Origin: a virus
Reading direction: 5' to 3' (one strand)
Virus genome (UHGV): UHGV-0124909
Length of the DNA: 23,179 nt
The position numbers were made by a program, and so were the translations under genes. Shown one piece after another: positions 3,249-16,532 of this stretch; the first letter of the stretch is position 1; each line of letters begins with the position of its first letter. The notes below the pieces were generated by a model, which saw only the letters and a list, made by a program, of their open reading frames with translations, was not told the origin of the DNA and searched no databases.

Positions 3249-3407
3249 TTATGGCGATACCAGAGAGCTTTCTGCGTGTACATGCGTCTCTGTAACTTGC
3301 TCTCCTTTACTGTGGTTGCAAGTGACATGAATATCTCCTTCGTTACCGATTAATTCTTTCATCTGACGAATGAATTCTTCGTCTGACCAGTTATCTGTAA
3401 AACTCAT
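3249..3407 (-). CDS. Hypothetical small protein at the kil position (52 aa)
   Basis: Start MSFTDNWSDEEF is coupled to the cIII-like stop by an ATGA overlap. No similarity to lambda Kil recognised. Confidence 0.35.
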   Translation of the reverse strand: MSFTDNWSDEEFIRQMKELIGNEGDIHVTCNHSKGEQVTETHVHAESSLVSP

Positions 3408-3574
3408 GGACGGCCTTGTTGTTTCAAAATATCCCAAAGCTTTTCGAGCAAACTTTTCATTCTTGGTTGTTTAAAGTCTGCTCCGGTTAAAATGTTTTTT
3501 CGTGAATGCTGTACCGATAAAATCGGGTTGAAAGGGCGAACCGATGCCGCCCCTGCAATAGCGAACTGTTGCAT
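3404..3574 (-). CDS. cIII: cIII-like regulator (FtsH protease inhibitor), 56 aa
   Basis: MQQFAIAGAAS...LLEKLWDILKQQGRP resembles lambda CIII (MQYAIAGW...); AGGAG RBS 7 nt upstream of the ATG at 3574. Longer listed ORF trimmed. Confidence 0.6.
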   Translation of the reverse strand: MQQFAIAGAASVRPFNPILSVQHSRKNILTGADFKQPRMKSLLEKLWDILKQQGRP

Positions 3575-3640
3575 AGGATGCTCCTTCTGTTTGATTGCAT
3601 AACGAAAACGCCTCGAGTGAAGCGTTATTGGTATGCATAT

Positions 3641-3665
3641 AAAAAGGCCCCCCACATCGGAGGGC
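3641..3665 (-). terminator. Putative intrinsic terminator upstream of cIII (tL-like)
   Basis: Minus strand GCCCTCC-GATGT-GGGGGGC (7 bp, one G.U) followed by CTTTTT. Confidence 0.45.
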
Positions 3666-3760
3666 AAAGAAGATTTCCAATAATCAGAACAAGTCGGCTC
3701 CTGTTTAGTTACGAGCGACATTGCTCCGTGTATTCACTCGTTGGAATGAATACACAGTGC

Positions 3761-3964
3761 TTATTCGCGAGCTTTGAGCATTGCGTCTGCAAACTTATAT
3801 GCAGCGCTTGCTGCATAATTAACAACTCCATCAGAATCATTATCGATAATCGATGGATTGCTAATCATTGCTTGCATAGCCTTTGCCGCGAAGTAATCGC
3901 GTAATGTCGCATCACTTGCCATTTCTGGGCGTTTGATATCTGCTTCATAAAACTCGCACATCAT
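3761..3964 (-). CDS. Hypothetical protein (67 aa)
   Basis: ATGA overlap with the upstream gene; strong RBS GGGAGGTGA. Confidence 0.45.
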   Translation of the reverse strand: MMCEFYEADIKRPEMASDATLRDYFAAKAMQAMISNPSIIDNDSDGVVNYAASAAYKFADAMLKARE

Positions 3965-4278: not shown

Positions 4279-4305
4279 CAAAAATAAAGGCCGACTATGC
4301 GGCCT
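4279..4305 (-). terminator. Intrinsic terminator within the PL operon
   Basis: Minus strand AGGCCG-CATAGT-CGGCCT followed by TTATTTTTGG; the hairpin overlaps the stop of ORF 4304..4774. Confidence 0.65.
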
Positions 4306-5446: not shown

Positions 5447-5752
5447 TCAATAAGCACCGTACGGTAGTTTACTGTACAATTTTATTTTTTGGACTGCATG
5501 TATTTTGTTTCCTAATGGGTTTGAATCTTTGTAATAAATACTTCTATTTTTTCGAACAACTTCTTCTTTCTTCTTGCAGCAAAGGATTCCTAGTGATGCT
5601 GCTTTGTCTGCTTTGACGCAACCAGAGAGCTTTAGCGCAATTTTTCGCGCCAGTGCTTCATTACTGCGTCGCTCGGCAATAAGTTCTGCTCTGCGAGCTT
5701 TGTAGCGGCTTTTTGCCGTACCTTTGGATTCTTTCCAGACAATGGTTACCAT
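5447..5752 (-). CDS. N: N-family transcription antiterminator (phage-21-type arginine-rich motif)
   Basis: Start MVTIVWKES with AGGAG RBS. N-terminal arginine-rich motif GTAKSRYKARRAELIAERR matches the remembered phage 21 N peptide. First gene of the PL operon, with nutL upstream. Confidence 0.75.
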   Translation of the reverse strand: MVTIVWKESKGTAKSRYKARRAELIAERRSNEALARKIALKLSGCVKADKAASLGILCCKKKEEVVRKNRSIYYKDSNPLGNKIHAVQKIKLYSKLPYGAY

Positions 5753-5862
5753 GATGGTCTCCTTTAAGTGGCTTTGGCGCATGACGCGTCGAGGTGCTTA
5801 TCTTCTCGATCGCTGTCTTGCAGCTGCAATTCGCGCCATCCCCAAAACCACTCAAGTTCTGG

Positions 5863-6066: not shown

Positions 6067-6717
6067 TTAAGGAAGGTTTGCTAGCTTGGCATCAACGACA
6101 ACGCCAATGATTTTACAGTTCCCATTGATTTCAATCATTGGGTATTGTGGATTGAGTGGTTTCAGGAATTTTCTACCGGCATCAATAACTAACTTTTTGA
6201 ATGTCGCCTCGTTTTCCCCTTCAAGTTTGGCGACTACCAGCTTTCCATTACGTGGTTCGACTTCTGGGTCGACGAGAATAATCATCCCCTCAGGAATACT
6301 CAGTCCTGCCGGGGCAGTCATTGAATCGCCTTTAACGTCGAGCCAAAAAGAGTCTTCAGAACAATCTACCGTTGTGTCGTACCAGTTATCTATTGCACGC
6401 CTATGATATGGCTCTACAGCTTCCATCCAACATCCTGCGCTTACCCAACTAATTAGAGGATACGAACCTCTTGGATCATGCCTGCTGTGATAGGCAATGT
6501 TTGAAAGACTATCCTCTCCTTTCAATAGGTAATCAGGGGAGCACTGCAAAGCCTTGGCTAAGGCCAATAGGTTTTCGCCATTGGGCTCAGTTTCAGATCG
6601 CTCCCATTGGGAAATAGCAACATTAGACACGCCAACCATCTTGCCAAGGGCAGCCTGCCTAATCTTGAGTTCTTTTCTGCGAGCGCGAATACGCTCACCC
6701 ATCAGTTGTGTATTCAT
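6067..6717 (-). CDS. c2: Prophage repressor, P22 C2 / lambda cI family (HTH plus LexA-like S24 autopeptidase domain)
   Basis: MNTQLMGERIRARRKELKIRQAALGKMVGVSNVAISQWER... (HTH), Ala-Gly cleavage region and C-terminal ...GDSMTAPAG...KLVVAKLEGENEATFKKL. Near-identical to my recollection of P22 C2. Confidence 0.9.
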   Translation of the reverse strand: MNTQLMGERIRARRKELKIRQAALGKMVGVSNVAISQWERSETEPNGENLLALAKALQCSPDYLLKGEDSLSNIAYHSRHDPRGSYPLISWVSAGCWMEAVEPYHRRAIDNWYDTTVDCSEDSFWLDVKGDSMTAPAGLSIPEGMIILVDPEVEPRNGKLVVAKLEGENEATFKKLVIDAGRKFLKPLNPQYPMIEINGNCKIIGVVVDAKLANLP

Positions 6718-7098: not shown

Positions 7099-7395
7099 AT
7101 GGCACAAGCAAGCTACAGCAAGCCAACACAGCGAGAAATTGATCGCGCTGAAACTGATTTACTCATCAACCTGTCAACGCTTACCCAGCGCGGTCTGGCA
7201 AAGATGATTGGCTGTCATGAATCGAAGATAAGCAGAACGGACTGGAGATTTATTGCTTCGGTCTTGTGTGCTTTCGGAATGGCATCAGACATCAGTCCGA
7301 TTAGCAGGGCTTTTAAGTATGCGCTTGATGAAATCACAAAGAAAAAATCCCCGGCCGCCACCGAGGATTTTAAGCAAATTGATATGCAATTCTGA
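7099..7395 (+). CDS. c1: cII/C1-like transcriptional activator (98 aa)
   Basis: HTH region plus C-terminus KKKSPAATEDFKQIDMQF resembling lambda CII C-terminus KKRPAATERSEQIQMEF; position downstream of cro and nutR. Confidence 0.7.
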   Translation: MAQASYSKPTQREIDRAETDLLINLSTLTQRGLAKMIGCHESKISRTDWRFIASVLCAFGMASDISPISRAFKYALDEITKKKSPAATEDFKQIDMQF

Positions 7396-7574: not shown

Positions 7575-8465
7575 ATGGGCGTCGTTAAGTTAGCTGATTA
7601 CAGGCATAACCCTGTACAACATCAGGAGGCATCCAGTATGGGGTATGTCTCTATACATCGCCAGTTTATGGACAGCAGGCTCTATAAGGACTCTCAGGCA
7701 GTACATCTTTGGCTTCACTTAATCCTCAAGGCTAATCACGAATCTACTGTCGTCAATACGGATATCGGTCCGATAACTGTTGATCGCGGTCAGATGATAA
7801 CTGGACGCCCGTCGCTGGTCAGAGAAACATTCATCCCCGACAACAAAGTTCGGAGCTTATTACGGACTTTTGAGTCGAAAGGTATGCTTAATATTTGCTC
7901 GATGGGGAAGAAATTTAGCCTGTTTACAATCGTTAAATATGACGATTTTCAGGCAAAAAATTGTCCAACGGTTGTCCAACAGTTGTCCAACGCAAACACC
8001 AGTAATGGTGCGGCTCTCAGCGGAGATTGTCCAACGGTTGTCCAACGGTTGTCCATAAACAATAATATAAATAATATCTCTAATACTGACGTATTAGAGA
8101 GTGCTACAGCAGACAAAAAGTCTGACAAGAAAAAACCTTCCGTTAGCTGTCAGGATGTTGTCGATGCTTACCACGAAATCCTTCCTGAAGCGCCAAAAAT
8201 CCGCGCACTGAATGACAAGCGTAAAAACCAGATCCGAACGTTCTGGCGCAAAGCCGGAGTGATAACCCGCCAGCTTGACGGGCATGGGTTCACGATGCAG
8301 GACTGGAGAAATTATTTGAGCTACGTAGGCGAAAATTGCCGATGGATGTTCGAAGAGCGCCCAAACCATCAGCGCGGAACCGTCTGGCACAAAAAGGGAT
8401 TTGATTTCCTGCTTAACGATAATACCTACCTGAAAGTTCGTGAGGGTGAACACGATGACCGATAA
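7575..8465 (+). CDS. Replication initiator (lambda O / P22 gene-18 analogue), with internal ori iterons
   Basis: Contains the iteron array (TTGTCCAACGG repeats) followed by an AT-rich stretch; located directly upstream of the helicase gene. Confidence 0.75.
   Translation: MGVVKLADYRHNPVQHQEASSMGYVSIHRQFMDSRLYKDSQAVHLWLHLILKANHESTVVNTDIGPITVDRGQMITGRPSLVRETFIPDNKVRSLLRTFESKGMLNICSMGKKFSLFTIVKYDDFQAKNCPTVVQQLSNANTSNGAALSGDCPTVVQRLSINNNINNISNTDVLESATADKKSDKKKPSVSCQDVVDAYHEILPEAPKIRALNDKRKNQIRTFWRKAGVITRQLDGHGFTMQDWRNYLSYVGENCRWMFEERPNHQRGTVWHKKGFDFLLNDNTYLKVREGEHDDR
7961..8056 (+). repeat. Replication-origin iterons inside the O-like gene
   Basis: Six direct repeats of TTGTCCAACGG (or close variants) in two clusters of three at 11-bp spacing, followed by an AT-rich stretch at 8057-8100. 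Confidence 0.8.
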
Positions 8466-14964: not shown

Positions 14965-15340
14965 GCTGGTTATTGTTGCCTTCGTTGTTACCGTCATTGG
15001 TTCCTTCATCTGGTCTGCTGGGCATTACTACAGCAAATATCAGCACGAAAAGGAGCGTGCTGATGAGGCTGTACGAAATGCTGAATCAGCAACTGCCATT
15101 ACCCGTAACGTTCTGCAATCACTGCAAATCATCAATACAGTTATAGAGGCTAACCAGCATGCAAAAGAGCAGATCGCACTGGACGCATCGGGAGCCTCGG
15201 CTGATATCCGGGTTGCTGTTGCGAATGATGATTGCACTAATCGCCCTGTCCCTGCTGGCGCAGTTAAGCGGCTGCAACAATTCGCGAACGGTCTACGTCA
15301 AAGTGCCGGTAGTCCCGTTACCGGCCAGCCTGACGGCTGA
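14948..15340 (+). CDS. Rz-like inner-membrane spanin (i-spanin)
   Basis: N-terminal TM helix LVIVAFVVTVIGSFIW followed by a charged helical region; follows the endolysin; contains the o-spanin start in another frame. Confidence 0.6.
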   Translation: MKLRYKLVIVAFVVTVIGSFIWSAGHYYSKYQHEKERADEAVRNAESATAITRNVLQSLQIINTVIEANQHAKEQIALDASGASADIRVAVANDDCTNRPVPAGAVKRLQQFANGLRQSAGSPVTGQPDG

Positions 15341-15509: not shown

Positions 15510-16190
15510 TTACAGAACCCACCACCTGATCGAATCTGTGGGTATGGTTGCAGCCTCGACATTCTGGATCATACCCAACTCGGTGGCCCTTCCCGGATCA
15601 ATGATGGTTGCAGAAGTGATCAAATTAGCCCAGTCAATTTGCTCATCTGGGGCTACAGCGAGAGCCTCGATATTCATCACCTGCACAAATCTTTGCAAGT
15701 CGTCATCCAGACATGCCGCCCATTCCCTAAGCCTGAGGTGATCTGCTTGTGGGGCGGCAAATCCCCAATGTAAAGGATGTAATAAAAATCGCGAGAGAGG
15801 ATTAGCAAACCGCTCAGATCCAGCCATGAAAATAACATTTGCTATAGATTCCACGTTACTAAGGTTATGTGTCTTCACCTTTACAGGAAGAGACTTAAGA
15901 AAGTTGTATGCGGTAAAACCTGCAACGGTATCTCCACCTTTACTAGAGATGTAAATCCTGATCTCAGAGGCTGGTTGGTTAGGGCTTGATATCGCTTTGA
16001 GGCAAACATCCATAAGGCTGGATACAGAAGCAACTGTCACATCTGTCATGAAGTGTACGGTATGGATCATTTCAGTTTCCCAGAGATATGCCGCAATTGG
16101 CATTTTCATAATGCACATAAAGTGAAAGGTTTTCTGCGTAAACCCGGATGAAATAATTTCATGAAGTAAGGCATTACAGAAGCCCTTCAT
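15510..16190 (-). CDS. ClpP-fold (S14-like) putative serine protease, moron gene
   Basis: IRIYISSKGGDTVAGFTAYNFL resembles the ClpP core motif IYLYINSPGG.V.AG.AIYD; candidate Ser in NVESIAN and His in LLHPLH. Opposite strand to the late operon and AT-rich. The first ATG lies in a hairpin loop with no RBS, so the real start may be downstream. Confidence 0.5.
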   Translation of the reverse strand: MKGFCNALLHEIISSGFTQKTFHFMCIMKMPIAAYLWETEMIHTVHFMTDVTVASVSSLMDVCLKAISSPNQPASEIRIYISSKGGDTVAGFTAYNFLKSLPVKVKTHNLSNVESIANVIFMAGSERFANPLSRFLLHPLHWGFAAPQADHLRLREWAACLDDDLQRFVQVMNIEALAVAPDEQIDWANLITSATIIDPGRATELGMIQNVEAATIPTDSIRWWVL

Positions 16191-16201
16191 TGAGGGGCTT
16201 C
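16179..16201. other. Stem-loop 1 (GAAGCCC-TTCATTGAG-GGGCTTC) covering the first ATG of the ClpP-like gene
   Basis: 7-bp perfect inverted repeat with a 9-nt loop; no T-run follows on either strand. Confidence 0.6.
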
Positions 16202-16373
16202 GATAATGAAACCGGAATTTATTCTGGGTAACCAGTTACGGCAGTACAGCGAAACAACCCAAGCCAGTAAGTGGGGAAATAACACTGGCAGCCACTGAAA
16301 GATGAACCTCCTGCCTTATGGCAAAAAAGATTCTTTGTGGTGGCGGACTGATGGAAAGACATCGGTTATTGCA

Positions 16374-16396
16374 GAGACCATTCAATGAGTGGTCTC
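16374..16396. other. Stem-loop 2 (GAGACCA-TTCAATGAG-TGGTCTC) in the moron intergenic gap
   Basis: 7-bp perfect inverted repeat with a 9-nt loop nearly identical to loop 1 but a different stem sequence. Confidence 0.6.
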
Positions 16397-16532
16397 GACA
16401 ATGGCTTATACCCTACACGGGATAACTTAACTGATATCCCCACAAGCGGATAAAGAGATTCTCAATGTCAGGAATCTACTTTTAGTCCTAGTAATGATGA
16501 ACTAGATATCAGCTGAGTCGCTTGGGTGGTGA

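Follow-up and report, generated by a model that had tools for sequence, protein, structure and literature searches.

What function is served by the inverted repeat that lies between a short minus-strand ORF and the cIII gene of the virus genome UHGV-0124909? An earlier note, made from the letters of this DNA, had proposed that it could be either a protein-binding site or an RNA processing structure. The window, i.e., the whole stretch of DNA analysed, comprises 23,179 nucleotides, and all positions given here refer to it unless stated otherwise.

The inverted repeat and its genomic setting

The sequence around the repeat reads ...ccGTGTATTCActcgttggaaTGAATACACagtg..., and it contains a perfect 9-nt inverted repeat with the arms GTGTATTCA and TGAATACAC at 3728-3736 and 3747-3755, separated by a 10-nt spacer (CTCGTTGGAA). 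The earlier note had recognised this repeat but started it at 3729 and counted a spacer of 9 nt. The repeat is located, as described there, downstream of the ORF 3761..3964, at a distance of 5 nt (minus sense) from the TAA stop codon at 3763-3761. A total of four matches at three distinct places in the window were found for perfect 9-nt inverted repeats with spacers of 3-12 nt, compared with 0.91 +/- 1.07 per window in 200 dinucleotide-preserving shuffles, and the perfect match alone is therefore not significant. The palindrome was to be discounted, according to the earlier note, if it was neither conserved nor more frequent than expected by chance; the perfect repeat is indeed not unusual in frequency, but the palindrome is nevertheless conserved, as described below. 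A repeat finder extends it to an imperfect repeat with arms of 17 nt (3723-3739 and 3744-3760). Elsewhere in the window, perfect inverted repeats of 9-10 nt are TCTCTAATAC/GTATTAGAGA, with a spacer of 4-6 nt, at 8077-8100 inside ORF 7575-8465, and ATCAGCACG/CGTGCTGAT, with a spacer of 8 nt, at 15039-15064.

On the minus strand, the genes for a cI-like repressor and an N-like protein are followed by small ORFs, a terminator-like hairpin, two further ORFs, the palindrome, an sRNA gene homologous to lambda PreS, cIII, and Erf (Table 1). This gene order places the palindrome in the PL (leftward early) transcript, in agreement with the earlier note, which had overlooked the neighbouring sRNA gene of 88 nt together with the terminator of that gene. 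The TAA stop codon of the 67-aa ORF is located 3 nt before the 14-bp stem described below and abuts the outer G-C pairs of the helix.

Table 1. Features around the palindrome and in the flanking early region of the window.
Feature	Position	Strand	Remarks
cII	7099-7395	plus	
cI-type repressor	6067-6717	minus	Peptidase_S24 and HTH
N-like protein	5447-5782	minus	
Terminator-like hairpin	4288..4305	minus	AGGCCGCATAGTCGGCCT + TTATTTTTGG; terminator scan
ORF, 98 aa	3961..4257	minus	XkdD/Y8K6 family phage-associated protein (RefSeq name)
ORF, 67 aa	3761..3964	minus	No Pfam match
Flanking stem-loop, full interrupted helix (predicted)	3723..3760, 38 nt	minus	RNA sense 3760->3723; folding, covariation
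Non-coding stretch, 190 nt	hairpin to cIII	minus	Two terminator-like hairpins, 3665-3647 and 3626-3607
PreS (LPR1) sRNA gene	3639..3726, ~88 nt	minus	Cloning primers and +1 numbering of the PreS authors
PreS intrinsic terminator, equivalent to lambda tL2a	3639..3665	minus	Stem GCCCTCC-GATGT-GGGGGGC (3665-3647), then CTTTTTAT; terminator scan
Second terminator-like hairpin	3601..3626	minus	AACGC..GCGTT + TTTCGTT (AACGCTTCACTCGAGGCGTT + TTCGTT), just upstream of the cIII ribosome-binding site
cIII-type gene, 56 aa (MQQFAIAG...)	3404..3574	minus	AAGGAG before start; annotated CIII in HK542, SPN9CC, and SEN22
Erf	3147-2542	minus	SSB-like ORF next

Alignment with lambda revealed that window positions 3639-3760 correspond to the ral-ea10 spacer and positions 3575-3640 to the ea10-cIII spacer. 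Compared with lambda, ea10 is absent, so that PreS lies directly upstream of cIII, and two extra ORFs are present upstream of the palindrome. In lambda and mEpX1, the equivalent of the 4288-4305 hairpin directly precedes the palindrome-PreS cassette with a spacer of only ~30 nt, and the 98-aa and 67-aa ORFs therefore look like a moron-style insertion at the 5' edge of the cassette. The whole arrangement with both extra ORFs was detected in only 30 of 5,426 complete E. coli genomes. Counterparts of positions 3560-3760, at 90-99% identity, occur in 328 phage records and in 2,245 of these 5,426 genomes. The homology in common with other phages stops at about 3760-3767, i.e., at the outer edge of the helix and the end of ORF 3761-3964.

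The second terminator-like hairpin (3601-3626) is homologous to the lambda ea10-cIII spacer and probably corresponds to lambda tL2b or to the cIII leader. Lambda, HK, and P22-like phages conserve it along with the ribosome-binding site of cIII, and compensatory variants of it, such as AATGC...GGCATT, were observed.

The PreS gene adjoining the palindrome

LPR1, since renamed PreS, is an Hfq-bound and Hfq-dependent sRNA encoded between ral and ea10 of lambda, whose 3' end is the terminator tL2a (Silverman et al., 2024, bioRxiv 10.1101/2024.10.31.621285). It is detected as a band of ~88 nt together with a stronger, processed band of ~68 nt, and is expressed only in the lytic cycle, remaining silent in lysogens (bioRxiv 10.1101/2024.10.31.621285). 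It is reported that PreS activates the translation of dnaN, represses alaS, and promotes phage DNA replication; the Hfq binding, the lytic expression, and the activation of dnaN are properties known for lambda PreS only (bioRxiv 10.1101/2024.10.31.621285). The primers used for cloning and in vitro transcription begin at GAGCAATGTCGCTCGTAACT, and the published pairing positions 42-56 correspond to GAUUAUUGGAAAUCU (bioRxiv 10.1101/2024.10.31.621285).

These primers and the published numbering locate the +1 of PreS at the G of GAGCAATG, which is window position 3726 and lambda position 34011. As the gene runs from there to about 3639, the palindrome constitutes the immediate 5' flank of PreS. G3726 is the last paired base of the 14-bp stem, where it pairs with a C, and the nucleotides +3 and +4 (GC) pair with an upstream GC to form the two outer pairs of the helix. 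The first 102 nt counted from the outer G-C pair, covering the hairpin and PreS nt 1-68, are 100% identical to lambda, including the dnaN/alaS-pairing seed and the 22-nt core GTTCTGATTATTGGAAATCTTC (3690-3669), which spans the published pairing positions 42-56 and was used as a search anchor. Differences from lambda start in the terminator, where only the loop and the 3' arm of the tL2a equivalent are changed. With its homology to lambda across positions 42-56, its GC-rich stem and poly-U 3' end, and its position in the PL operon on the promoter-proximal side of cIII/ea10, the locus is, as far as sequence homology can tell, a copy of the known lambda PreS gene.

The definition of PreS in the preprint starts at +1 and leaves out the upstream stem-loop, and the available parts of the preprint (the text and, for the hairpin, the supplements) do not refer to any hairpin, to cleavage or biogenesis, or to where transcription starts (bioRxiv 10.1101/2024.10.31.621285). 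When PreS is cloned from +1 onwards and the hairpin is left out, the RNA accumulates and both dnaN and alaS are regulated, and the full lpr1 deletion constructed by the authors retains the hairpin, with the homology arm of primer P969 ending at ...GAGTGAATACACG (bioRxiv 10.1101/2024.10.31.621285). Neither 5' RACE nor primer extension of LPR1 is given in the available preprint text (bioRxiv 10.1101/2024.10.31.621285), and the published +1, which seems to derive from the size of the band and the coverage by reads, may be wrong by several nucleotides at most.

A promoter of its own was considered for PreS and rejected. The promoter scan gave no promoter-like site on the minus strand near 3726-3800, and the interval in which the -35 and -10 elements would lie is the variable stem itself. 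Together with the silence of PreS in lysogens, these observations fit the excision of PreS from the PL transcript.

A 105-aa frame starts at an ATG at PreS +6 (window 3404-3721, minus strand) and runs through PreS and both terminator hairpins into cIII, with which it is in frame. It was treated as spurious as a coding frame, with a GGAG only 2 nt from the ATG and two terminators crossed. The annotation of phage mEpX1 includes an extended "putative cIII" of this kind, which overlaps the terminator annotated in that phage. The extended annotation is probably an artefact, the real start of cIII being the ATG at 3574, which is preceded by AAGGAG.

Several candidate relationships were rejected. The EHEC anti-sRNAs AsxR and AgvB, located downstream of PR', were judged to be different from PreS, as was HnrS, which was set apart by its description in the accessible part of the source rather than by sequence. 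Masking of the seed by the loop of the hairpin was likewise dismissed: the complementarity seen by eye extends over 6 nt (UUCCAA/UUGGAA), is estimated to occur by chance at ~0.1, and is absent from the stem types T2-T5 introduced below.

Structure, covariation, and distribution of the stem-loop

In the minus-strand RNA, the predicted helix begins with the outer pairs G3760-C3723 and C3759-G3724, followed by an A/A mismatch and a 14-bp stem (3757-3744 with 3739-3726) that contains two U-G pairs and is closed by the loop CAAC (3743-3740). Its folding energy is -21.7 kcal/mol, with a z-score of -7.6 to -8.6 and no shuffled sequence folding as well, and, when both strands are scanned in overlapping 40-nt windows, it ranks first in stability out of 23,140 (mean -6.25, sd 3.4). 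The plus-strand RNA of the same element reaches only -15.8 kcal/mol. Two related hairpins were observed elsewhere on the plus strand, at 16171-16210 (-21.0 kcal/mol) and 16365-16404 (-19.5 kcal/mol), about 190 nt apart. They rank second and fifth in stability among the distinct sites in the window and are similar in design, with a 10-bp GC-rich stem within outer pairs of the AUAAUG/CAUUAC type.

No T-run follows the palindrome on either strand and the terminator scan makes no call there, so that the GC-rich stem plus U-tract of an intrinsic terminator is not present, as the earlier note had concluded. A role as a transcription pause or atypical terminator hairpin could be envisaged from its stability and its location in a terminator-rich stretch equivalent to the tL2 cluster of lambda. 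This is very improbable, given that a U-tract follows in none of the five stem types, that the true terminator is located 60 nt downstream, and that the pause hairpins known to us are far smaller than a 14-bp stem. The boxB element of nut sites consists of a 5-bp stem with a GNRA-like pentaloop downstream of boxA, in contrast to the 14-bp stem and CAAC loop found here. By-eye comparison with a LexA box, boxB, and a Fur-like motif gave no match for the palindrome. Rfam searches of the window and the P22-type loci returned no family at the gathering score or at the E-value thresholds, and the best weak match, mir-5366, was considered spurious (19 bits compared with a gathering score of 73). The full-text literature search with the sequence strings returned one match, which was unrelated.

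The conservation of the palindrome was examined over several hundred loci with exact-pattern scans, for which the anchor was the seed in IMG/VR, the 5' end of PreS in metagenomes, and the hairpin itself in species-representative genomes. The lambda-type anchors yielded 253 copies of PreS, a number that leaves out L152 and L176 from the metagenome scan, which are chance 19-mer matches and not PreS. A predicted hairpin ending at +1 is present in all 333 PreS-family copies with enough flanking sequence (52 distinct flanks), which establishes the conservation in related phages that the earlier note had suggested looking for. Conversely, the hairpin-anchored genome scan gave 23 exact matches, and PreS comes next in all 21 that could be evaluated.

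The 333 copies fall into five stem types, T1-T5, whose arms are unrelated in sequence but which have one architecture in common, GC-N-C-(N)-[11-14 bp stem, 3-5 nt loop]-(N)-G(+1)-A-GC, with folding z-scores of -3.8 to -8.6 per type. In a minority of the lambda-type copies, the stem is replaced by the unrelated T2, CCUAUAGCAGAUU-UACG-AGUCUGCUAUGUG, and within T2 there is a single case of a pair flip from A-U to U-A (GCAGA/UCUGC to GCUGA/UCAGC). The types reassort with three types of sRNA body and with the upstream contexts. Fifteen representatives were aligned with MAFFT in structural register (alignment A3). In this alignment, 94.2% of the cells form a standard pair, compared with 66.8% after shuffling, and the covariation score is 0.676 compared with 0.147, neither value being reached in any of 500 shuffles. 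When the partners are slid by 1-3 columns, the covariation falls to at most 0.108 and the paired cells to at most 47.6%. Both sides change in 9 of the 15 pairs, while almost no variation is seen in the basal pairs or in the apical A-U/U-G/U-A pairs, which could be subject to sequence-specific recognition. The covariation stems from a handful of whole-stem replacements rather than many substitutions and thus represents few independent events, and a replacement palindrome is self-complementary by origin. In all 52 variants, the PL-sense RNA folds better than the antisense RNA, by 4.2 kcal/mol on average, because of the G-U pairs.

The shared architecture, the two-sided changes of pairs, and the PL-sense folding indicate an element acting at the RNA level rather than a protein-binding site or a terminator. 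The perfect 9-bp half-sites with their 10-bp spacer would suit an operator for a dimeric DNA-binding protein, the first of the two roles in the earlier proposal. Such an operator is hardly credible here, since the half-site is not conserved and five stems with unrelated arms occupy the same position in homologous loci. The stem is also extended by G-U pairs, which are mismatches in duplex-DNA symmetry, the site lies inside an operon and far from any promoter, and no LexA box, boxB, or similar motif was matched by eye.

Between -30 and +60, counted from +1, the copies have an ungapped identity of 0.95-1.0 with the window, and this value drops to about 0.3 beyond -40 and +90. At least eight different upstream contexts and several downstream contexts (ea10, cIII, and others) were found for the cassette; hairpin, sRNA, and terminator thus form one mobile module of ~125 nt (-35 to +88) that moves as a unit through many operon contexts. 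As the palindrome is located exactly where the homology between phages breaks, it might also be imagined as a DNA-level feature of a mosaic junction that marks a recombination boundary, or was left behind by the exchange of modules, and has no RNA function, and the whole-stem replacements could be DNA exchange events. We consider this quite improbable: the five unrelated stems keep their length class, their position, and the pairs with PreS +1, +3, and +4, the G-U asymmetry favours the transcribed sense in 52 of 52 variants, and a compensatory flip of a single pair has occurred within T2.

The family of PreS has been reported as a set with at least 92% identity (bioRxiv 10.1101/2024.10.31.621285). 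A sensitive BLAST search with PreS alone additionally retrieved P22-like Salmonella phages, e.g., ST104 and SEN22, in which only the 5' half of PreS is common, at ~84% identity, and a further scan added 120 loci. The PreS-like genes of these and other phages have the 5' leader GAGCAAT[A/G]TCGCTCGTAAC[C/T]AAAC in common, and an intrinsic terminator forms their end, but their bodies differ, namely a P22 type (...CTCGTTCTGGTTAATCGAAAAATC...) and a third type (...GAGCGAAGACCTGTTCTGGTTAGATTGAG...). They are located at positions 660-810 of locus L266 (phage ST104), at 665-800 of L267 (phage SEN22), and in many IMG/VR loci (L268-L386). The family is therefore wider than the set reported, with different bodies behind the same leader and hairpin, and the P22-like and third-type relatives probably have different targets.

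The exact lambda hairpin was also encountered in assemblies of Pseudoxanthomonas, Shewanella, Pseudomonas, Neobacillus, Oceanobacillus, Kitasatospora, Bradyrhizobium, and other bacteria (L123, L124, L126, L131, L132, L135, L142, and others). Many of these contigs have low coverage, and several measure ~48.4-48.5 kb, compared with 48,502 bp for lambda. They are almost certainly contamination by lambda control DNA rather than real prophages.

The comparative evidence indicates that the palindrome is the DNA image of a conserved, predicted RNA stem-loop in the N-antiterminated PL transcript that is locked to the 5' end of the PreS family. Two points are added to what is known of this sRNA, again at the level of sequence comparison: its flanking stem-loop is obligatory and shows covariation, and its family reaches P22-like phages.

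Possible role in PreS biogenesis

The helix ends exactly at the published PreS +1, which makes a processing role plausible. We lean towards the stem-loop being a boundary or processing element that sets the 5' end of PreS and caps the upstream mRNA, where we infer both the role and the nuclease. The second role in the earlier proposal, an RNA processing structure, thus holds for the structure, which is documented by compensatory covariation and G-U strand asymmetry, while the processing is plausible.

In the proposed mechanism, the stem-loop would fold independently of the upstream gene and fix an endonuclease site that separates PreS from the upstream message. A cut by RNase III in the lower stem would fit the geometry, and a structure-guided RNase E site is also possible. 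As PreS +1 lies inside the lower helix and not in a single-stranded AU-rich tract, a staggered cut of the RNase III type would be the simplest fit. The cleaved upstream mRNA would then carry a flush hairpin at its 3' terminus, which would withstand 3' exonucleases, and PreS would be free to fold, to bind Hfq, and to be trimmed to the ~68-nt form. This second step may take place in the AU-rich GUAAC/UAAAC stretch in an RNase E-like manner.

It is reported that, in vivo, the positions between the staggered cuts of RNase III are paired, usually with at least one G-C, and that the enzyme accommodates ~22 bp, with minimal substrates of ~11 bp from the cut to the end of the helix (PMC6212723). The helix described here comprises 16-17 bp with one or two 1x1 mismatches and is thus shorter than the ~22-bp footprint, and the distance from the presumed cut to the loop is 11 bp in T1 and 10-11 bp in T2-T5. 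If the presumed cut falls before +1, the pairs between the staggered cuts in T1 are G-C and U-G, a geometry that would match the in vivo rule. In T2-T5, one of the two positions between the cuts is a mismatch, depending on the presumed cut site. The RNase III hairpins of lambda, i.e., the N-leader site and sib, are similarly intramolecular stems in PL-derived RNA, and the location of PreS +1 in the lower stem appears compatible with a staggered cut.

It is also conceivable that the stem-loop only stabilises or insulates the upstream message, serving as an intercistronic 3' hairpin that shields this mRNA and holds terminating ribosomes off the sRNA, and that another signal sets the 5' end of PreS. 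The hairpin is very stable, has no U-tract, and starts 3-5 nt after a stop codon in many contexts, including the window (GAATAA-GCAC), and the more abundant 68-nt form arises independently of the hairpin, in the AU-rich GUAAC/UAAAC stretch that lies a further ~20 nt downstream. This explanation is nevertheless unlikely in our view. No ORF ends beside the hairpin in lambda, where ral stops ~50 nt upstream, ahead of a hairpin and T-run of its own; moreover, the hairpin travels with PreS and with no particular upstream gene, and the base of its helix always contains PreS nt +1, +3, and +4. Intercistronic stabilisers such as REP elements and the stems of malE-malF and puf are stable structures without a U-tract that follow a stop codon inside an operon and block 3' exonucleases. 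The PreS-flanking stem resembles them in stability, in lacking a U-tract, and in its place just after a stop codon within an operon, but differs in being tied to a downstream sRNA and in pairing with the first nucleotides of that sRNA.

Alternatively, the hairpin could be the 5' protective stem of a longer PreS precursor or primary transcript whose true 5' end lies upstream, e.g., at a cut in the AAUAA tract. An AU-rich, RNase E-like GAAUAA directly precedes the helix in most contexts, and in the available preprint text the published +1 is not known as a nucleotide-resolution mapping. Such a precursor is improbable, since the bands reported are ~88 and ~68 nt rather than ~125 nt, and a PreS clone that starts at +1, with no hairpin, both accumulates and regulates its targets dnaN and alaS (bioRxiv 10.1101/2024.10.31.621285). 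No promoter-like site is present upstream, and that flank is not conserved.

Excision at the stem-loop, the reading that we prefer, can be compared with known systems. With lambda PreS/LPR1 itself, the locus has in common 100% of the sequence from the helix through PreS nt 68, the PL operon, a tL2a-type terminator, and the seed. DicF may by analogy be the closest mechanistic precedent for the excision of PreS. The 5' end of DicF is generated by RNase E and its 3' end by RNase III or termination, and it acts via Hfq on host mRNAs. It has no sequence similarity to PreS and, to our knowledge, carries no covarying 5'-flanking hairpin. Located in the dicB operon of the Qin prophage and reportedly the subject of work by Faubladier et al. 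in 1990, DicF is said to be a prophage sRNA within a polycistronic early transcript that is released by endonucleolytic processing.

A broader and more tentative possibility is that the stem-loop together with the leader GAGCAAURUCGCUCGUAACYAAAC forms a portable "sRNA-excision module", which might release at least three Hfq-type bodies (lambda PreS, the P22 type, and the third type) from N-antiterminated early transcripts, whatever the upstream gene, and also cap the upstream mRNA.

PreS is reported to reprogram the essential host gene dnaN, and the available portions of the preprint do not deal with how it is released from the PL transcript (bioRxiv 10.1101/2024.10.31.621285); a covarying stem-loop that always abuts +1 makes the biogenesis of PreS directly testable. 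For genome annotation, the "intergenic palindrome" and the stretch leading to cIII represent an sRNA gene and not an N-terminal extension of cIII. The stem-loop is also relevant to the question of how sRNA cassettes keep their function when they are moved from one phage operon to another. If the sRNA-excision module exists as proposed, it would be a general solution for trans-acting sRNAs in mosaic operons, because it is defined by structure and not by sequence.
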